Shown here: positions 20,721 to 32,374 of the stretch, piece by piece | Numbering within the stretch: the stretch's first letter is position 1 | How the letters are laid out: the number at the start of each line of letters is the position of its first letter | Assembly: GCF_041248615.1 (NCBI RefSeq) | Contig: NZ_CP158426.1 | Direction: 5' to 3' (one strand) | Source of the DNA: Escherichia coli | Lineage (GTDB): Bacteria > Pseudomonadota > Gammaproteobacteria > Enterobacterales > Enterobacteriaceae | DNA: 64,000 bases | Program-made: the position numbers and the translations under genes | Notes under the pieces: model-generated | What the model saw: the letters and a program-made list of their open reading frames with translations, nothing else | Told to the model about the DNA's origin: nothing | Databases searched by the model: none

Positions 20721-21515
20721 TTATTGACCATTGTCGCCTTCGCGGGTTAGCCACCAGGCCCCCAGGATCGGCAAGGTTGTTACCAACATAACCAGCAGTG
20801 CCACCACGTTGGTTACCGGTACATCACGCGGTCGCCCAAGCTGATTGAGCAACCACAACGGTAACGTTCGTTCATGACCTGCCGTAAAGGTCGTCACGAT
20901 GATTTCATCGAACGACAAGGCAAACGCCAGCATTCCTCCTGCCAGTAGCGCCGAACTGAGATTCGGCAACACTACGTAGCGGAAGGTTTGCCAGCCATTG
21001 GCCCCAAGATCCATTGATGCCTCAACCAGACTCCACGAGGTGCGGCGAAAACGGGCGATGACATTGTTAAACACCACCACTACGCAAAAAGTCGCATGGC
21101 CGACCACGATGGTGAAAAATCCCGGCTCCAGATTGATGGTTTTAAAGGCGGTTAATAGCGCCAGACCAGTGACAATGCCCGGCAGCGCAATGGGCAGCAG
21201 CAGTAACAGCGAAATGGCATTTTTGCCGAAAAAGTCTCGTCGCCACAGCGCAGCAGCTGCCAGCGTCCCTAACACCAGCGCGATTAATGTCGCCAGCGCT
21301 GCCACTTTAAGTGACAGTGTCACTGCATCAAGAATATCACTACGCTGTGCTGCCACGCTAAACCAGCGCAGCGTCAGGCCTTGCGGTGGAAAACTAAACG
21401 CCGCATCTTCAGTGTTAAAGGCATAGGCGGCGATAATCAGGATGGGAAAATGTAGGAAAACCACGCCGCCCCAGGCCGCCAGTTTGAGGAAAAACGGTGC
21501 GCGTTCAGAGTGCAT
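20721..21515 (-). CDS. ydcV: ABC transporter permease (polyamine-type)
   Basis: ORF track; multi-TM permease; operon with ydcSTU. Confidence 0.9.
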
Positions 21516-22446
21516 CGAACGCTCCCAGACGTTTCACGAACGCCAGGTACAGTGCGATAAGAACAATCGGCACCAGGGTGAATGCCGCCGCCATCGGCAT
21601 ATTGCCAATCGCTCCCTGCTGGGAATAAACCATATTGCCGATAAAATATCCTGGAGGGCCAACCAGCTGAGGAACAATAAAATCGCCCAGTGTGAGTGAA
21701 AAGGTAAAGATAGAGCCAGCGGCAATACCAGGGATTGCCAGCGGCAGCACCACATAGCGAAAGGTTTGCCGTGGACGCGCGCCAAGATCAGCCGACGCCT
21801 GCAACAATGACAGCGGCAAACGCTCAAGCGCCGCCTGCACGGGCAGGATCATGAACGGCAACCAGATATAGAGAAACACCAGAAAGCGCCCCAGCCCGGA
21901 AGTTGACAGCGTATTGCCGCCCACCGCAGGTAATGTAAGGAACGCAGTCAGCAGTGGTTCCAGCCCAAGATGTTGTAAAAACCACTGAGCCACGCCATCT
22001 TTTGCCAGCAATAACGTCCAGGCATAGGCTTTAACAATGTAGCTCGCCCACATCGGCAACATTACCGCAATATAAAAAAACGCTTTCATTTTCCCGCTGG
22101 TATAGCGCGCCATATACCACGCCATTGGAAAAGCCAGAATGGCGCTGGCGATAGTGACTGCCACAGCCATAGTCAGCGTGCGGAGAATGATGTCGTAATT
22201 CGCCGGATTAAACAGCGCACGGATATTCGCCATCGTCAGTTCCGGCGTTACCGACATGGTGAAATCGTCAAAAGTATAAAAGCCCTGCCATAACAGCGTT
22301 AGCAGCGAGCCGAAATAGACAATGCCAAACCACATTAGCGGGCCAAGCAGCAGTAAAAACAGCCCCAGCCCCGGATTACGCCAGAAGAAACCGGACACCT
22401 TACCCAGACCTGGACGTGAAGGTGATTGCAATACATTCATCGCCAT
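21505..22446 (-). CDS. ydcU: ABC transporter permease (polyamine-type)
   Basis: ORF track; multi-TM permease; overlaps ydcV start. Confidence 0.9.
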
Positions 22447-23460
22447 TCACCTCTCCTCAACCAGCGGCACCATCACATCACGCGACCAGGAAACCATCAC
22501 CTGTTGTCCGGGCGTGAGCGTGGCAGGCAGTTCTTCGCCTGTCATATTGGCCTGACTCACCAGCAGTTTTTCACCGCCGTTCAATTTCAGTTCAAAACGA
22601 GTTGCCGCGCCCTGATATTGCACCGCCTGGATCGTGCCATTGGCCTGCAGTTCACCAGGGGTGTTGAGGCGGATATGTTCCGGTCGCAGGGCGAAGCTTC
22701 CCGTCATGCCACAAAGTTTCTCTGCCATCAGTCCATCAAAAACATTCGATGTACCAACGAACCCGGCAACAAACGGCGTGCGCGGGCGCATATAGAGATC
22801 GCGCGGGGAATCGACCTGCTCAATGCGTCCATTATTGAAAACCGCCACACGATCGGACATCGATAACGCTTCGCCCTGATCGTGGGTAACGAAGATAAAA
22901 GTGATACCGAGAGACTGTTGCAGTTTTTTCAGTTCCAGCTGCATCTGCTCACGCAATTTGAGATCCAGTGCGCCGAGCGGTTCATCCAGCAATAACACAC
23001 GCGGTTCGTTCACCAGTGCTCTGGCGATGGCGACTCGCTGGCGCTGACCACCAGAAAGTTGTGACGGTTTGCGTTGCTGTACAAACCCCAACGCCACTTT
23101 CTCCAGCGCCTCTTGCGCCATTGCGTGCCGCTGCTTTTTATTCACGCCTTTGACCATCAGCCCATAGGCGACATTGTCAAGAATCGACATATGCGGAAAT
23201 AGTGCGTAGTCCTGGAAGACAGTATTCACGTCCCGCTCCCACGGTGGCAGATTGCTGGCGGGTTTACCAAAGATAGAGATAGCCCCGCCGGAAAGCTGTT
23301 CGAAGCCAGCAATCAGGCGCAGGCAGGTGGTTTTGCCGGAGCCGGACGGCCCCAGCATAGAGAAGAACTCACCATCTTTTATCGCAATACTGACGCCATC
23401 TACTGCGCGCACGTCACCGTACAACCGCGAGACGTTGTCAAACTCCACTGCGTACGTCAT
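22447..23460 (-). CDS. ydcT: ABC transporter ATP-binding protein
   Basis: ORF track; Walker A GPSGSGKTT, signature LSGGQRQRV, Walker B LLLDEP. Confidence 0.9.
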   Translation of the reverse strand: MTYAVEFDNVSRLYGDVRAVDGVSIAIKDGEFFSMLGPSGSGKTTCLRLIAGFEQLSGGAISIFGKPASNLPPWERDVNTVFQDYALFPHMSILDNVAYGLMVKGVNKKQRHAMAQEALEKVALGFVQQRKPSQLSGGQRQRVAIARALVNEPRVLLLDEPLGALDLKLREQMQLELKKLQQSLGITFIFVTHDQGEALSMSDRVAVFNNGRIEQVDSPRDLYMRPRTPFVAGFVGTSNVFDGLMAEKLCGMTGSFALRPEHIRLNTPGELQANGTIQAVQYQGAATRFELKLNGGEKLLVSQANMTGEELPATLTPGQQVMVSWSRDVMVPLVEER

Positions 23461-23477
23461 AAAACACCCCAGCGAAG

Positions 23478-24623
23478 TTAGCGACCGCCCATAATGGCAA
23501 TGTAATCCTGCGTCCAGCGACTGTAGGGAACAAACTTGCCCCCTTCTGCTATAGGTGTTTTCCAGAAGGCGATTTTATCGAAATAGTTAAAACCGTTTGT
23601 TTCACACCCTTTCTCGCCTAATAACGGACTGGCTTTACACCCTTCCGGCACTACCGGTAACGAGCCAAACCAGGCCGCCACATCGCCCTGCACTTTTGGC
23701 GTTAATGACCAGTTCATCCATTTGTAGGCGCAAACCGGATGTTTCGCTTCACTATGTAGCATGGTGGTGTCAGCCCAACCGGTAACGCCCTCTTTCGGGA
23801 ATACGGTCGCGACAGGCTGGCCTTCGGCTTTCAGGGCGTTGGCCTGATAGGGCCATGCACTGGAAGCAACCACACCCTCGTTTTTGAAATCGCTCATTTG
23901 CACGGTAGTGTCATGCCAGTAGCGATGGATCAAACTATGTTGATCGCGCAGCACTTTCAGCACCGCCTGGTACTGTTCTTCGGTGAGTTGATACGGATCG
24001 CTGATGCCCAACTGCGGCTGAGTGGCTTTAACGAACAACGCAGCGTCCGCAATGTAGATAGGGCCATCATAAGCCTGAACGCGGCCTTTATTGCTCTTGC
24101 CGTCCGGCAGATTCTGCTCAACAAAAACCACTTGCCAGCTATCCGGCGGCGTCGGGAAGGTTTTAGTGTTGTACATCAGCAGGTTCGGCCCCCATTGGTA
24201 AGGTGTGCCATAAACTTTGCCGCCAACGTTAAACCAGTCGCCTTTAACCACGCGCGGATCGAGCGCTTTCCAGTTGGGAATCAAGGCGGTATTAATCGGC
24301 TGCACGCGTTTGCCCATAATCAGGCGCAGCGAGGCATCGCCGGATGCCGTAACCAGATCGTAACCCCCTTTGGTCATCAGACTGACCATTTCATCGGAAG
24401 TCGCGGCGGTTTTAACATTCACCGCGCAGCCTGTCTCTTTTTCGAATTGCGTTACCCAGTCGTATTGTTTATCAGTTTGTCCGCGTTCGATGTATCCCGG
24501 CCAGGCGATAATATCCAGTCGCCCTTCCGGTTTATCTAAATTGGTAGGCGGTTCGGCGGCGTGAGCGGTCATTATTGTCATGGTGAGCGCACACAGGCTG
24601 CTGCGGGCAAATGTCTTGCTCAT
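23478..24623 (-). CDS. ydcS: Periplasmic polyamine-binding protein of ABC transporter (PotD/PotF-like), signal peptide
   Basis: ORF track; signal peptide MSKTFARSSLCALTMTIMTAHA. Confidence 0.9.
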   Translation of the reverse strand: MSKTFARSSLCALTMTIMTAHAAEPPTNLDKPEGRLDIIAWPGYIERGQTDKQYDWVTQFEKETGCAVNVKTAATSDEMVSLMTKGGYDLVTASGDASLRLIMGKRVQPINTALIPNWKALDPRVVKGDWFNVGGKVYGTPYQWGPNLLMYNTKTFPTPPDSWQVVFVEQNLPDGKSNKGRVQAYDGPIYIADAALFVKATQPQLGISDPYQLTEEQYQAVLKVLRDQHSLIHRYWHDTTVQMSDFKNEGVVASSAWPYQANALKAEGQPVATVFPKEGVTGWADTTMLHSEAKHPVCAYKWMNWSLTPKVQGDVAAWFGSLPVVPEGCKASPLLGEKGCETNGFNYFDKIAFWKTPIAEGGKFVPYSRWTQDYIAIMGGR

Positions 24624-24867
24624 AAGGTCTTACTCCTGTCGTAATTAATTGTTCAGCCGCCGTGCCGTAAAAATATCTCCTTGTTTAACCATAGACGGCG
24701 GCTAGCAGGCACACCTTCGCCCCTGAGAAAATTTAATCAGGTTGTGAGCTACCGCGCATTATGCCGTCTGTAAGGTTATCTTCTGGAGTATAGACAAGGA
24801 GTTAGGAAATATGACTGCTATTCGAAATTCATATTACCCAACCTGAGAGGAATTTAATTAAACGCTA

Positions 24868-26274
24868 TTACAGCCGTTCTTGAATAAGTTTGCCTAATTG
24901 TTTAACCGCCTGTTCTTCACGTTCTCCCCACTGCCACGCGGTATTAAAACGGAAAAAACGTGACCAGTTTTCACCGGTAGAAAACATTTTACCCGGCGCA
25001 ATACTGATATGATGCGCCAGTGCCGCCAGGCTTAATTCGCCCGCATCTAACGGTTCGGGAAGCTCCAGCCAGAGAAAATAACCGCTGTCATTATGATGAA
25101 TTTTCACTTCCGCAGGCAGATAACGCAGCAGTGCTTGCCAGGCACGTTGTTTACGTTCCGCAAGCTGGCGACGCAGGCGACGAAGATGGGCGTCGTATCG
25201 GCGCGTGGAAAGGTAATCCACCAGAGCAAGCTGCATCGGTGAGCTGGTGGAAAGCGTACTCATCAACTGCAAGCGTTGAATTTTACGTGCATGTTTTCCG
25301 GCGGCGACCCAACCAATACGAAAACCAGGCACCAGACATTTCGAAAACGAAGAGCAATGCAAAACACCATCGTGGTGATCCCACGCTTTCGCAGGCAGCG
25401 GTTTTTCCCGTCCAAAATAAAGTTCGCTGTAAACGTCATCTTCAATCAGCGTTACGTTGTACTGATTGAGCAACGCTACCAGCCGCGCTTTTTTCTGCGG
25501 CGTTAAGGTAAATCCGAGTGGATTCTGGCTATTAGTCATCAGCCAGCACGCTTTCACCGGATACTCCTGCAACGCCAGTTCCAGCGCCTTGAGATCAATC
25601 CCTTCTTTAACGTCCGTCGCCACCGATAACGCCTTCAGCCGTAACCGCTCCAGCGCCTGCAACGCGCCGTAGAAACAAGGATTCTCTACTATCACCCAAT
25701 CGCCCGGTTCAGTGACCGCTTGTAAACTGAGGTTTAATGCCTCTAACGCCCCGGCGGTAATGACAATTTCATCAGGAGAAATAGTGATGCCCTGTAAGGC
25801 ATAACGACGAGCAATAGCCTGACGCAGTTCTGCGTTTCCTGGCGGTAAGTTTTCAATCACGCTCATCGCCGTGGCGGTTTTGCTTACCTGCGCCAGCGAG
25901 CGGTTTAGTTGTTGGAGGGGGAAAAGTCGCGGGTCGGGAAAGGCCGAGGCAAACGGAACTACCGACGGATCGCGACTGGCCTGCAACATATCAAAAATAT
26001 AGGTGTTGATATCGACTGCTTCATCTCGAGTGACAGGAATGACTGGCGCTTTCGGCATTTTTATTGCCTGTGGCGCAACGTAATAACCCGACTGCGGTCG
26101 AGCGATAATATGTCCCTGACTTTCGAGCAACTGATAGGCATGGCTGACAGTCATAAAGCTCATGCCAGAAAGCGCCACCTGGTCACGCAACGAAGGCAAA
26201 CGATCGCCAGGTTGCCAGATACCCGACGCAATCTGCTCGCGTAATTGTTCTGCAAGCTGCTGGTATTTTTTCAT
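24868..26274 (-). CDS. ydcR: MocR/GntR-family regulator with PLP-dependent aminotransferase-like domain, 468 aa
   Basis: ORF track; N-terminal GntR HTH plus aminotransferase-fold C-terminal domain. Confidence 0.9.
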   Translation of the reverse strand: MKKYQQLAEQLREQIASGIWQPGDRLPSLRDQVALSGMSFMTVSHAYQLLESQGHIIARPQSGYYVAPQAIKMPKAPVIPVTRDEAVDINTYIFDMLQASRDPSVVPFASAFPDPRLFPLQQLNRSLAQVSKTATAMSVIENLPPGNAELRQAIARRYALQGITISPDEIVITAGALEALNLSLQAVTEPGDWVIVENPCFYGALQALERLRLKALSVATDVKEGIDLKALELALQEYPVKACWLMTNSQNPLGFTLTPQKKARLVALLNQYNVTLIEDDVYSELYFGREKPLPAKAWDHHDGVLHCSSFSKCLVPGFRIGWVAAGKHARKIQRLQLMSTLSTSSPMQLALVDYLSTRRYDAHLRRLRRQLAERKQRAWQALLRYLPAEVKIHHNDSGYFLWLELPEPLDAGELSLAALAHHISIAPGKMFSTGENWSRFFRFNTAWQWGEREEQAVKQLGKLIQERL

Positions 26275-26352
26275 TATCGAATCGTAATTATGTGCAGATG
26301 ATTCGGCAGTCTATATCAGTTGTTAAAAATGACAACTTTTCGTTAACTGTAA

Positions 26353-26790
<438 letters not shown>

Positions 26791-26814
26791 GTCATTAACC
26801 TTTTTAATTGGCGA

Positions 26815-26991
26815 TTAACTCAAACCGAGTTGCTTCAGGATTGCTTTACGCAATGGTTCTTTTATCTCATCACTGGGGTGACGCGGCATGACACTGCGTC
26901 GCCCTTGAAACCTGAGTTTCAAATGGTTGCTGCCATTCGCCACATCGACGCCCTGAGATTCGAGCCAACGTCTGAACTCGCTTTGTTTCAC
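26815..26991 (-). CDS. hicA: HicA mRNA interferase toxin, 58 aa, GTG start
   Basis: Read from DNA: VKQSEFRRWLESQGVDVANGSNHLKLRFQGRRSVMPRHPSDEIKEPLRKAILKQLGLS; below the ORF-track size cutoff. Confidence 0.8.
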   Translation of the reverse strand: MKQSEFRRWLESQGVDVANGSNHLKLRFQGRRSVMPRHPSDEIKEPLRKAILKQLGLS

Positions 26992-27212
26992 ATCACCTCC
27001 CTGCCGCTGAGTATATCAACAAAGTAAACATTAGTGTTTACCTCCGTGTGTAATTTGCTCGAAAATAGCACTAAATCGCCGCAACGGCAGAATGCAATGC
27101 AAAATCAGGAAGGAAGATTCCAGAATTTCTTTGCGCTAATTTGCAAAACTGAATAATAACCTCAAGAAACGATCGGCATCATAGCGGCAAAAGGTCAGAA
27201 AAAGGTGGTGGG

Positions 27213-27443
27213 ATGTTTTCGAAGGTGTTATCGGTTGTCTTATTAACGTGTGCGCTGTTCTCAGGACAACTCATGGCAGGGCACAAAGGACATGAATTTG
27301 TGTGGGTAAAGAATGTGGATCATCAGCTGCGTCATGAAGCGGACAGCGATGAATTGCGTGCTGTGGCGGAAGAGTCGGCGGAAGGTTTGCGCGAGCATTT
27401 TTACTGGCAAAAATCGCGCAAACCAGAAGCGGGACAGCGTTGA
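27213..27443 (+). CDS. yncJ: Small secreted protein YncJ (76 aa)
   Basis: ORF track; signal peptide MFSKVLSVVLLTCALFSGQLMA. Confidence 0.7.
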   Translation: MFSKVLSVVLLTCALFSGQLMAGHKGHEFVWVKNVDHQLRHEADSDELRAVAEESAEGLREHFYWQKSRKPEAGQR

Positions 27444-27534
27444 GTCATTTGTTGCCGGATGCGGCATGACGCCTTACCCGGCAGGCAATATCATGCAGAT
27501 TTGATGAGTTGTGAGTAACCAGAAAACTGGCGTT

Positions 27535-29538
27535 TTACCCTTTTCGCTTCGGTAAAGTTTTCAGCAGCTCATCCGGACTTACGGATGCCACTACGCTTCC
27601 CGGTAACGGCATTTTCAGTATGTGATTTTTGATTTTGCCAATGACGTGCATCTCGCATGGGCGGCAATCAAACTTTAGCGTTAACACTTCATCACCGTTA
27701 ACCAGTTGCATTGGCGTCGCCTTCCAGCTTTTGATATTGCCTTTCGCCTGTTTCGGGCACAGATTGAAGGCAAAGCGCAGACAATGCTTAGTGATCATCA
27801 CCGGGACTTCGCCCTTCTCTTCATGTGCCTCATACGCCGCGTCAATCAGCTGCACACCATAGCGATGATAAAATTCACGCGCTTTCTGGTTGTATACGTT
27901 CGCGAGGAAACTCAGATGCGTTTGCGGATAAACCGGCGCAGGATCAGCAACCGGTTTACGGCTGCCCCGCTGGTAACAGGCTAGACGTGCAGCATCCAGC
28001 ATGTCGGCGGCTTCACGGCGGAACTGGTTTAACAGACTGTTTGGTACAAACAGCGCCCCGGGCAAATTAATTTGCACATCGCGGGCGTAATAGATGGTTT
28101 GCCCCAGTTTTGCCAGACCATCCTTCAGATTGTTCATTGCTTTTTCGGCGTTATTGGCTTCGTCGAATTGCCCGTCCAGGGTATGCGTGACGCTGACACC
28201 CTCTTCACTGGTGAGGGTCAGAATCAGTTGTTCCTGCCAGCCGCCCAGTTCAATGTCTACCGCCACCCGACGTTCGCTGGATGTTTTTGTCAGTGCCTGC
28301 TGCCAGTTATGATCAAGATTACGGTTTAGTGGGTGATGCGGGCGAATTTTGTGCAAATCTGCTGGCATTTCATTTGGCCAGACGCGGTACTGATTTTCTC
28401 CGGTTTTCTCTACCGTATTGGCACGAAAACCGACTACTTCACGTTTAATCATCACGTTCAGGCCATCGCCATTTGCCAGTGGCTCGGTGACGGCAACATC
28501 AAGATGATCTTTCGCCACTTTCAATACTTCACCCACCGGCAGGCCGATAAATTTCGGCGAATCGAACGCGCCAATATCGCCTTTACGGGCATTCACAAAA
28601 TAATCTGTGCTACCACGGTGGAAAGTCTTTTCCGTCGATGGAACAAAGAAATGTTCAGTACGACCTGATGAAGCACGCGCCAGATCGCCACGTTCTTCAA
28701 TAATGGCATCCAGCATTTGGCGATAATGCGCGGTGATATTCTTCACGTAGCTCATATCTTTGTAACGCCCTTCAATCTTGAAGGAGCGCACGCCAGCATC
28801 AATCAGCGCGCCAAGGTTGGCAGTCTGATCGTTATCTTTCATCGACAGCAGATGTTTTTCATAAGAAACCACCCGCCCCTGATCGTCTTTCAATGTGTAT
28901 GGCAAACGGCATGCCTGCGAGCAATCGCCACGGTTGGCGCTACGCCCTGTTTGCGCATGAGAAATGTAGCACTGACCAGAATAGGCCACGCACAATGCAC
29001 CATGAATAAAGAATTCAATGGTCGCGTCCGTGGCCTGGTGAATCGCGCGGATCTGCTCAAGATTCAGCTCTCGCGCTAGCACTATCTGCGTGAAACCAAC
29101 ATCAGAGAGGAACTTCGCTTTTTCTACTGTGCGAATATCGCACTGCGTACTGGCGTGAAGTTCAATCGGCGGAATATCAAGTTCCAGAATCCCCATATCC
29201 TGAACAATCAGCGCATCGACGCCAGTCTGGTAGAGGTCGGTAATCAGCCGTTGCGCAGGTTCCAGCTCATCATCATGCAAAATGGTGTTAAGCGTGACGA
29301 AAATTTTTGCACCATAACGATGGGCAAATGGCACCAGTTCGGCAATATCTTTCAGGCTATTACTGGCATTATGACGGGCACCAAAACCAGGGCCGCCGAT
29401 ATAAACAGCATCGGCACCGTGCAAAATAGCTTCGCGGGCAATGGCGGCATCGCGTGCCGGGCTTAACAGTTCAAGTCGATGAGAAGATACGGTCACATTC
29501 TTATCCAGTAGCTGAAAAATGGCGGCTATTTTAGCCAC
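27535..29538 (-). CDS. rlhA: Peptidase U32-family protein (23S rRNA hydroxycytidine synthase RlhA/YdcP); start uncertain (GTG at 29536-29538 or a downstream start)
   Basis: ORF track; U32 family conserved region and Cys-rich C-terminal region. Confidence 0.85.
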   Translation of the reverse strand: MAKIAAIFQLLDKNVTVSSHRLELLSPARDAAIAREAILHGADAVYIGGPGFGARHNASNSLKDIAELVPFAHRYGAKIFVTLNTILHDDELEPAQRLITDLYQTGVDALIVQDMGILELDIPPIELHASTQCDIRTVEKAKFLSDVGFTQIVLARELNLEQIRAIHQATDATIEFFIHGALCVAYSGQCYISHAQTGRSANRGDCSQACRLPYTLKDDQGRVVSYEKHLLSMKDNDQTANLGALIDAGVRSFKIEGRYKDMSYVKNITAHYRQMLDAIIEERGDLARASSGRTEHFFVPSTEKTFHRGSTDYFVNARKGDIGAFDSPKFIGLPVGEVLKVAKDHLDVAVTEPLANGDGLNVMIKREVVGFRANTVEKTGENQYRVWPNEMPADLHKIRPHHPLNRNLDHNWQQALTKTSSERRVAVDIELGGWQEQLILTLTSEEGVSVTHTLDGQFDEANNAEKAMNNLKDGLAKLGQTIYYARDVQINLPGALFVPNSLLNQFRREAADMLDAARLACYQRGSRKPVADPAPVYPQTHLSFLANVYNQKAREFYHRYGVQLIDAAYEAHEEKGEVPVMITKHCLRFAFNLCPKQAKGNIKSWKATPMQLVNGDEVLTLKFDCRPCEMHVIGKIKNHILKMPLPGSVVASVSPDELLKTLPKRKG

Positions 29539-29568
29539 AAGCGCGACGTTGCGAAATAGTTTTCCCGC

Positions 29569-30105
29569 TTAACTGCGTGGGTAATGGATGAGGGAATGAA
29601 AATGTACGATTTGCTCCCCACCATTACGATAGATATGCGTAACGTCTGCAGCAAATCGAGCGCCTTCTCCACAATTAAGGCTCTGCCATTCACCATCAAC
29701 GCACAGATCAAGTTGCCCATCAATGACGACAACATGTTCGATTACTCCCTTCTCATGGGGCGTCGATTCACTTATTGCACCAGGTGCCATCTGAATCGAG
29801 AAGTGTTCAAAGCAGAGTTGTGGATCATAAGGAAACAGTGAAGTGATCACCATCGCCTGCTGTTGTGGATCATAAACTGAAGGCGTAGCGGACTGTGGCG
29901 GAGAAATAAATGTCGAAAATGGCACGTTCAACCCGGTGGCAATTTTCCATAATGTCGCGACCGTCGGGCTGGATTCATTACGCTCAATCTGCCCTAACAT
30001 CGCTTTAGAAACGCCCGTCGCTTCTGCCAGTCGCGAAAGACTCCAGCCGCGCTGCTGACGTAGTTGTTTAAGTGTGGTGGATAAAAAGCGAGTGAGATTT
30101 TCCAT
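29569..30105 (-). CDS. ydcN: XRE-family HTH regulator with C-terminal cupin domain
   Basis: ORF track; N-terminal HTH (LRQQRGWSLSRLAEATGVSKAMLGQIE). Confidence 0.85.
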   Translation of the reverse strand: MENLTRFLSTTLKQLRQQRGWSLSRLAEATGVSKAMLGQIERNESSPTVATLWKIATGLNVPFSTFISPPQSATPSVYDPQQQAMVITSLFPYDPQLCFEHFSIQMAPGAISESTPHEKGVIEHVVVIDGQLDLCVDGEWQSLNCGEGARFAADVTHIYRNGGEQIVHFHSLIHYPRS

Positions 30106-30196
30106 GTGACTCCTCCGGCAAAGCGGAAGTTTATCACTTGTGCGTTATAACGGACAAATGCTACGGTGCCTGTATGCTATAACGCACGAGGTGACT

Positions 30197-31369
30197 ATGC
30201 GTCTGTTTTCTATTCCTCCACCCACGCTACTGGCGGGGTTTCTGGCGGTATTAATTGGCTACGCCAGTTCAGCGGCAATAATCTGGCAAGCAGCGATTGT
30301 CGCCGGAGCCACCACTGCACAAATCTCTGGCTGGATGACGGCGCTGGGGCTGGCAATGGGCGTCAGTACGCTGGCTCTGACATTATGGTATCGCGTACCT
30401 GTTCTCACCGCATGGTCAACGCCTGGCGCGGCTTTGTTGGTCACCGGATTACAGGGACTAACACTTAACGAAGCCATCGGCGTTTTTATTGTCACCAACG
30501 CGTTAATAGTCCTCTGCGGCATAACGGGACTCTTTGCTCGTCTGATGCGCATTATTCCGCACTCGCTTGCGGCGGCAATGCTTGCCGGGATTTTATTACG
30601 CTTTGGTTTACAGGCGTTTGCCAGTCTGGATGATCAATTTACGTTGTGTGGCAGTATGTTGCTGGTATGGCTGGCAACCAGGGCCGTTGCGCCGCGCTAT
30701 GCGGTAATTGCCGCGATGATTATTGGGATCGTCATCGTTATCGCGCAAGGTGACGTTGTCACAAATGATGTTGTCTTTAAACCCGTTCTCCCCACTTATA
30801 TTACCCCTGATTTTTCGTTTGCTCACAGTCTGAGCGTTGCACTCCCCCTTTTTCTGGTGACGATGGCATCGCAAAACGCACCGGGTATCGCAGCAATGAA
30901 AGCTGCCGGGTATTCGGCTCCTGTTTCGCCGTTGATTGTGTTTACTGGATTGCTGGCGCTTGTTTTTTCCCCTTTCGGCGTTTATTCCGTCGGTATTGCG
31001 GCAATCACCGCAGCTATTTGTCAAAGCCCGGAAGCGCATCCAGATAAAGATCAACGTTGGCTGGCAGCTGCCGTTGCCGGCATTTTTTATTTGCTCGCAG
31101 GTCTTTTTGGTAGTGCTATTACCGGGATGATGGCTGCCCTGCCCGTAAGTTGGATCCAGATGCTGGCAGGTCTGGCGCTGTTAAGTACCATTGGCGGCAG
31201 TTTGTATCAGGCGCTGCATAATGAGCGTGAGCGAGACGCGGCGGTGGTGGCATTTCTGGTAACGGCAAGTGGATTGACGCTGGTCGGGATTGGTTCTGCG
31301 TTCTGGGGATTAATTGCCGGAGGCGTTTGTTACGTGGTGTTGAATTTAATCGCTCACAGAAACCGATAA
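30197..31369 (+). CDS. ydcO: BenE-family inner membrane transporter
   Basis: ORF track trimmed to ATG 30197 (MRLFSIPPPTLLAGFLAVL...); about 12 TM helices. Confidence 0.85.
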   Translation: MRLFSIPPPTLLAGFLAVLIGYASSAAIIWQAAIVAGATTAQISGWMTALGLAMGVSTLALTLWYRVPVLTAWSTPGAALLVTGLQGLTLNEAIGVFIVTNALIVLCGITGLFARLMRIIPHSLAAAMLAGILLRFGLQAFASLDDQFTLCGSMLLVWLATRAVAPRYAVIAAMIIGIVIVIAQGDVVTNDVVFKPVLPTYITPDFSFAHSLSVALPLFLVTMASQNAPGIAAMKAAGYSAPVSPLIVFTGLLALVFSPFGVYSVGIAAITAAICQSPEAHPDKDQRWLAAAVAGIFYLLAGLFGSAITGMMAALPVSWIQMLAGLALLSTIGGSLYQALHNERERDAAVVAFLVTASGLTLVGIGSAFWGLIAGGVCYVVLNLIAHRNR

Positions 31370-31403
31370 TAAAAAGCGCCATCTTACGATGGCGCGGCTG
31401 GAA

Positions 31404-32072
31404 TTACTTTTTGTTAACGTCAAACATAGTGGCATCGGTCGCCATGTCATCAATAACTTGTTTAATATTTTCGAAAGCCATTGGCGTACTTTCGTTATTC
31501 AGGTCTTTACCTTCGCCCTGACGAACGACTTTGATAACCGGTTTATTAGTCGCTGCATCAATCAGCTCACCTTCAAAATAGAGGCGAGTATCCATGGTAC
31601 GGTGGCCTGTAGCCATTTGCGTCCCCGCAACCACTAATGCAACAGGAACCACTTCATAGAATTGCAGCCCTTCTTTGCTGGTATCTACACCGGTAATGGC
31701 CCCACGGAAAATCAGACTACGCGGCCCAGCGGTGGTAACCAGTGGTTTACGCTGCGCTATCGCTTCTTTCATTTCGGTGTTGGTATAGTTCAAAATTTTA
31801 TCCAGAACTTTCTGCCCTACCTGGGTAGAAGGTTTTGGCACCGGATAATAAGTGATTGGGTTCCAGACGATGCTGTCATATTTGCTTTGATCAAAACTCG
31901 GGTCTACCCAACGTAAAACAGGTTTACCTGTTGCTGAGGTTGTTTCTTTTAAATCAGAGTAATTGTTTAAAAAACCAGAATATTTATCTGGCTGGGTGAT
32001 TTTAGAGGCACAACCAGACAGAGCCAACAAGCCGCATAAAGCTGCAACTTTCGCAAATGATGTAGTACGCAT
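31404..32072 (-). CDS. ydcL: Lipoprotein YdcL (lipobox LSGC)
   Basis: ORF track; signal peptide with lipobox MRTTSFAKVAALCGLLALSGC. Confidence 0.85.
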   Translation of the reverse strand: MRTTSFAKVAALCGLLALSGCASKITQPDKYSGFLNNYSDLKETTSATGKPVLRWVDPSFDQSKYDSIVWNPITYYPVPKPSTQVGQKVLDKILNYTNTEMKEAIAQRKPLVTTAGPRSLIFRGAITGVDTSKEGLQFYEVVPVALVVAGTQMATGHRTMDTRLYFEGELIDAATNKPVIKVVRQGEGKDLNNESTPMAFENIKQVIDDMATDATMFDVNKK

Positions 32073-32374
32073 GAATAGTTTCCTGAGATGATTATATTAC
32101 TTTCTAAGTTATAGCAAAAAGCGCCGCTTCGTGTTGTGGCAAAAAAAGTGTTGGTGAAAATAAATTTTTTAGCCCCTTTTCAGACGACATAGTCAATGCC
32201 GAAAAAGGGGCTAAGTCAATCATCAGTAGTTAAATTTCAGTAAGTTAAGCGGCTAAAAAACTTCGACTACTGTGATTGATTTCACATCCCTTCGATAAAA
32301 AATATGCTTACCGAAAAGAAGAACAGTAAACCATCTCAGCGTGGGGAATTTTCACGCGCTTTGTTCTTACCGGA

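Follow-up and report, generated by a model that had tools for sequence, protein, structure and literature searches.

The DNA analyzed here, referred to as the window, is a stretch of 64,000 nucleotides from Escherichia coli. Over all 64,000 bases it shows a 100% match to the chromosome of E. coli NRZ14408 (NZ_LT599825.1, 2787672-2851671). As K-12 reference, the segment 1461000-1545000 of MG1655 (NC_000913.3) along with its annotation was aligned to the whole window, and the collinear blocks showed only ~96.5-98% identity. Another strain, GN02461, is 100% identical over a 2-kb query, but its structure differs from the window elsewhere. The initial annotation, which was made from the sequence alone, had assigned the DNA to a non-K-12 lineage, and the match with NRZ14408 along with the distance from K-12 bears this out.

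Two junctions of the window were found to differ from K-12 in gene content. At the first one, ydcO and ydcL face each other across a short spacer, and at the second one, pdxI (ydbC) and paaY are direct neighbours (Table 1). The initial annotation had described ydcO and ydcL as 34 bp apart without insQ and ydbC and paaY as about 230 bp apart without ydbA, and both descriptions hold, the second distance being 231 bp. It had also placed insQ between ydcL and ydcO and ydbA between paaY and ydbC in K-12. The MG1655 annotation agrees with this placement, and the alignment of the whole region showed that K-12 does not possess the junctions of the window.

Table 1. Features of the window discussed in the text, with positions counted from its first base.
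Feature	Position	Strand	Remarks
RHS core protein	1210..5421	-	intact, 1403 aa
yncG pseudogene	7391..7997	-	glutathione S-transferase-like; 11-bp frameshifting deletion; intact in K-12
IS200C between pqqU and mcbR	~13316..15350		interrupted by IS1414; absent from K-12
ydcO	30158..31369	+	BenE-family transporter; Pfam E = 5e-162; stop codon TAA at 31367-31369
ydcL intrinsic terminator (predicted)	31366..31395	-	hairpin 31395..31376, tail TTTTTATTAT 31375..31366
TTAT, unoccupied IS609 target motif	31369..31372	-	insertion point between 31368 and 31369
ydcO-ydcL spacer	31370..31403		34 bp, between convergent genes
ydcL	31404..32072	-	DUF3313 lipoprotein gene
gapC	43818..44819	+	intact type I GAPDH, 333 aa, both GAPDH domains
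Strain-specific segment, ydcF-hrpA	47371..50234		replaces 141 bp of K-12
Three small ORFs, ydcF-hrpA segment	47413-47748, 49233-49682, 49669-50007	-	
Second IS1414	47738-49051		cuts short ORF 47413-47748; absent from the close relative GN02461
pdxI (ydbC)	62174..63034	-	aldo/keto reductase
pdxI-paaY spacer	63035..63265		231 bp
Filler at the putative ydbA deletion joint	63252..63264		13 bp; GTCCTGATGCTGG in K-12 orientation
paaY	63266..63856	-	

The ydcO-ydcL spacer and the IS609 target site

The spacer between ydcO and ydcL is predicted to be the native intrinsic terminator of ydcL. On the minus strand, it runs from the ydcL stop codon TAA through TTCCAGCC, GCGCCATC, GTAA and GATGGCGC to TTTTTATTAT. 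The terminator sequence, GCGCCATCGTAAGATGGCGC followed by TTTTTATTAT, starts 9 nt past the ydcL stop codon and is composed of a G+C-rich stem of 8 bp, a loop of 4 nt and a T-tract. Folding gave a minimum free energy of -15.3 or -16.3 kcal/mol according to the strand folded, with z values of -3.2 and -2.9. The T-tract overlaps with the stop codon of ydcO on the opposite strand. Compared to the haplotype present in K-12, O157 and ST131, the window shows differences in the terminator loop and at two bases close by.

In the alignment, window 15344-31368 corresponds to K-12 1520934-1504909 and window 31369-47370 corresponds to K-12 1503160-1487162. The K-12 segment absent from the window between these blocks is, to the base, the annotated IS609 (1503161-1504908, 1748 bp), which carries the tnpA pseudogene yncK and insQ, coding for a TnpB-type RNA-guided endonuclease. 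No blastn match to IS609 was found anywhere in the 64-kb window. In K-12, the two junctions read GATGGCGCTTTTTAT followed by CCGGTGCGCC and GGAGGATGTCAA followed by TATCGGTTT (the right flank also written as TATCGGTTTCTG), while in the window GATGGCGCTTTTTAT is directly joined to TATCGGTTT (in the other notation, GATGGCGCTTTTTAT to TATCGGTTTCTG) and the IS609 ends are absent. What separates the occupied allele from the empty one is exactly IS609, with no target-site duplication and no loss of flanking bases. When IS609 was removed from K-12 in silico, the resulting sequence matched the empty site of O157:H7 at 81 of 81 positions. The right end of the K-12 element splits the stop codon of ydcO (TA/A), which results in the reading CGA TAT TGA and one additional C-terminal tyrosine in YdcO.

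IS609 shows the features of the IS200/IS605 family, as it has genes for TnpA and TnpB and bears hairpins instead of terminal inverted repeats at its two ends. Its left and right ends contain related subterminal hairpins with the motif C(C/A)C(A/G)TCCTTCAGGGCG(G/T)GG. The right-end fold is well marked with a z of -4.1 and the left-end fold is weak (z = -1.2). InsQ contains the domains OrfB_IS605, Cas12f1-like TNB and HTH_OrfB_IS605. At the ydcL/ydcO locus, the examined copies, that of K-12 included, have tnpA as a pseudogene, and an O157 copy has it intact. Elements of this family encode a Y1 HUH transposase and move as single strands, and the short target 3' of which they insert is not duplicated. 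The absence of duplication at the IS609 site is therefore expected from single-strand 'peel-and-paste' transposition.

IS609 copies at four independent sites, namely ydcL/ydcO, a DUF3251 gene, a yedK-adjacent position and the TetR gene/ytfB position (the last one common to two strains), are all 1748 bp in length with TTAT abutting the left end, and the TTAT rule is derived from these four insertion sites. As the T-tract in the window ends in the same TTAT, its spacer can be considered an unoccupied IS609 target site. At the insertion point of K-12, the window carries the exact target of the element, the ydcL T-tract ending in TTAT and continuing into TATCGG (TTTTTAT directly followed by TATCGG), but the element itself is wholly absent.

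Spacer alleles and the direction of the IS609 event

The distribution of the spacer alleles was analyzed in 5426 complete E. coli genomes. The empty site, taken as an uninterrupted 100-bp junction, was found in 2046 genomes (38%), including O157:H7, Nissle 1917 and ST131. IS609, identified by the junction of its right end with ydcO, occupies the spacer in 3265 genomes (60%), among them K-12, W and ECOR29. In a further 122 genomes (2%), IS200C is situated in the A-run at 31372-31375, ~5 bp from the IS609 point. These three classes cover essentially all the genomes. The empty state is present in over a third of the sequenced E. coli, which is already known as documented strain variation. IS200C also belongs to the IS200/IS605 family and uses the same 34-bp spacer in those 122 genomes, but it is absent from the spacer of the window, though the window has one copy elsewhere, between pqqU and mcbR. 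A 1.3-kb IS1414 interrupts that copy close to one of its ends. The sequence 5'-AATAAA lies against the same end of IS200C in the window copy and in the spacer copy of strain 103.

Species representatives were searched using a pattern for the ydcL C-terminus that allowed for codon degeneracy, which yielded 7 loci. An exact 30-mer across the empty junction, too strict as a query, gave 0 matches among the species representatives. In E. whittamii, Escherichia sp. E1V33 and the 'E. coli' representatives E69 and SCPM-O-B-8794, ydcL and ydcO are convergent and separated by exactly 34 bp. The YdcO proteins of these four Escherichia species-level lineages showed 94.5-97.8% amino-acid identity to YdcO of the window. 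The T-tract varies among the outgroups, reading CTTCTGAT, CTTCGGAT or CTTCTTAT. E. albertii NBRC 107761 keeps ydcL along with its terminator, and ydcO is absent from the locus. In 'Enterobacter sp.' ENT03, ~2 kb of non-IS609 sequence separates ydcL from a ydcO of 67% identity.

Since the same 34-bp spacer is found in four other Escherichia lineages, the empty ydcO-ydcL site is probably the ancestral state for the genus and the IS609 allele derived. IS609 would have entered the site in a forerunner of the K-12-type lineages, its left end coming to lie immediately 3' of TTAT, and the window lineage, never hit by the element, would have retained the ancestral empty site.

A shortened form of IS609 was observed in a cryptic Escherichia clade. 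Escherichia sp. MOD1-EC7003 (NZ_PTRE01000219.1, 1-330) possesses an IS609 mini-remnant of ~46 bp at the same TTAT, in which the start of the left end is fused to the terminus of the right end through the shared hairpin motif. Beyond the remnant, most of ydcO is deleted along with part of sutR. The remnant has the look of a PATE-like derivative or of a recombinant between the hairpins of the two ends. Its presence hints that the insertion of IS609 may predate a single event in E. coli or that there may have been more than one.

The empty site of the window might also be secondary, if TnpA had precisely excised a resident IS609 or if recombination had replaced an occupied allele with an empty one. 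Seamless excision of an IS200/IS605 element would yield exactly the sequence seen, and sequence alone cannot separate an excised site from a never-occupied one. The occupation of the site by IS609 in 60% of the genomes and the degenerate remnant at the same TTAT in MOD1-EC7003 are in line with such an event. However, the four Escherichia species-level lineages with the identical 34-bp spacer and the strains of phylogroups B2 and E are all empty. The pseudogene state of tnpA in the copies examined at this locus and the complete lack of IS609 sequence within the 64-kb window also argue against it, and IS609 was found inactive in mutation-accumulation lines of E. coli K-12 (PMC5009759). Excision or replacement is hence considered very improbable, and retention of an empty site never entered by IS609 is the preferred reading.

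The pdxI-paaY junction and decay of the region

At the second junction, window 50235-63251 corresponds to K-12 1487020-1474005 and window 63265-64000 corresponds to K-12 1465062-1464327. The 8942 bp of K-12 situated between these blocks (1465063-1474004) are represented in the window by 13 bp only. In K-12, this segment contains ynbG and three fragments of ydbA split by IS2D and IS30C. The K-12 ynbG-ydbA region gave no blastn match in the window, and no ydbA is present between paaY and pdxI. The part of the spacer adjoining pdxI (63035-63251) is collinear with the sequence downstream of ydbA in K-12, including the last 9 bp of ydbA and its stop codon. In K-12 orientation, the joint consists of CGACCGAAACAGTAA with the paaY stop codon and one C, the filler GTCCTGATGCTGG, ACGTTCTAA with the ydbA stop codon and then TTTTTAGCATG. 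All the examined ydbA alleles end in GG(C/T)GTGATGCT(G/A)AACTT(C/T)AAGAAAAC(G/A)TTCTAA. The filler matches GGCGTGATGCTGA near the 3' end of ydbA in 10 of 13 bases, 8 of which form an unbroken run, and a search for its origin in the ydbA-allele loci of K-12, O157:H7 and DDG206 revealed nothing better than this 3' end. The match is suggestive, and the filler is probably a deletion scar.

The state of ydbA varies widely among the strains compared. The B2 strain MS15046 and an O25:H4 strain, also of B2, possess an intact ydbA homologue of 8.5-8.6 kb adjoining pdxI, and the sequence downstream of it is the same as that of K-12. In the O25:H4 strain, the paa operon is gone, but a remnant of the paaY 3' end and the same intergenic sequence still lie ahead of the gene. 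In O157:H7, ydbA is split in two, and in DDG206 it is cut by IS3. The ydbA-less joint of the window was found in 2028 of the 5426 complete E. coli genomes. In the O25:H4 genome NZ_CP082775.1, the 8.6-kb homologue (9320-17923) is annotated as 'EntS/YbdA MFS transporter', evidently a slip between the names YdbA and YbdA.

The window shares the paaY-pdxI locus and the sequence downstream of the ydbA stop codon with K-12, but the gene itself is broken by IS elements in K-12, intact at 8.5 kb in B2 and cleanly missing from the window except for ~9-22 bp. As B2 strains keep an intact gene at the same position and the window carries the probable scar, the absence of ydbA in the window is better explained by deletion than as a pristine state. 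Presence of ydbA appears to be the older state among the E. coli strains compared, followed by its deletion in the window lineage. The deletion of ~8.9 kb would have begun one base past the stop codon of paaY and ended ~9-22 bp short of that of ydbA, taking out the entire autotransporter gene together with its upstream region, and the terminator region of ydbA would now lie after paaY.

Alternatively, ydbA might never have been present in the window lineage and might have been gained together with ynbG between paaY and pdxI by K-12-type strains. In favour of this, the ydbA-less joint is common and uniform, and genomic heterogeneity has been described for the paa-ydbA region, full-length ydbA being present in ~42% of phylogroup A (Goldstone et al. 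2016, PMC4951805). A gain is nevertheless difficult to reconcile with the same position and same flanks of the gene in K-12, DDG206, O157:H7 and the B2 strains. Even where paa is lost, B2 strains keep an intact ydbA along with the 3' end of paaY and the sequence between them, and the intact B2 copies are bordered by no mobility genes or repeats. Moreover, the final 9 bp of ydbA and the stop codon are still present in the window, as is a probable 13-bp relic of the codons just upstream. Gain of ydbA is thus judged very improbable, and its deletion from the window lineage is favoured.

The initial annotation had further taken the compact junctions along with intact gapC and rhs as signs of a less decayed version of this region, and this view holds only in part. 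The window is free of IS609, IS2 and IS30. Its gapC is intact, as had been stated, and so is its RHS core ORF, while gapC and rhsE are annotated as pseudogenes in K-12. However, the RHS core shows only 81.6% identity to K-12 rhsE over 1.5 kb and represents a different, divergent allele, not an undamaged form of rhsE. Moreover, ydbA is wholly lost from the window, which reflects more decay and not less because B2 strains still hold the intact gene. The yncG gene is frameshifted, a decay specific to the window lineage in comparison to K-12, and the window has IS200C, IS1414 and ISAs1 elements of its own, none of which is present at those places in K-12.

The RHS core is followed by an overlapping ORF of 161 aa with pentapeptide repeats (728-1213), which is plausibly the cognate immunity gene. 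Both together (728-5421) are bracketed by ISAs1 (H-repeat) pseudogenes. In the segment between ydcF and hrpA, the three small ORFs showed no match in Pfam or PADLOC.

Significance of the two polymorphisms

An origin of the compact junctions as assembly artefacts from collapsed repeats deserves practically no credence, as the same junctions occur in ~2000 independent complete genomes, the window does not contain multiple copies of IS609 and no support for such a reading was found. Both synteny differences are taken, with a probability of about 0.9, as ordinary presence/absence polymorphisms within E. coli which are already known. The finding places the window, identical to NRZ14408, in a non-K-12 lineage of E. 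coli. It is of little importance overall and leaves the current understanding unchallenged.

A further possibility concerns the foot of the ydcL terminator, which may be a recurrent landing pad of IS200/IS605 elements, with the empty allele as a candidate target, on paper, of InsQ (TnpB) and its ωRNA. The IS609 and IS200C insertions ~5 bp apart and the mini-remnant in the cryptic clade point to repeated use of the place. The ωRNA guide of TnpB is drawn from the sequence flanking the right end of the element. In the empty allele, TTAT is followed by TATCGGTTTCTGTGAGCG, which differs by one mismatch from the right-end flank of K-12 IS609, TATCGGTTTCTGTCAGCG, and it is this match that would make the empty allele a candidate for TnpB homing. 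In permissive scans against Rfam, neither the K-12 IS609 locus nor window 30000-32500 matched an RNA family or an ωRNA model, and the literature on InsQ and TnpB yielded nothing specific on a TAM of IS609 and no reports of IS609 activity. The proposal is therefore held as doubtful.

The absence of ydbA illustrates that an absent gene can mean complete loss and not a pristine state. The ydcO-ydcL junction shows the to-the-base seating of an IS200/IS605 element in the T-tract of a terminator without duplication, and the spacer can be used as a three-state marker (empty, IS609 or IS200C). If the homing proposal were true, these three alleles would offer a ready natural system in which to ask whether the retention of IS elements in wild E. 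coli populations is shaped by TnpB homing.
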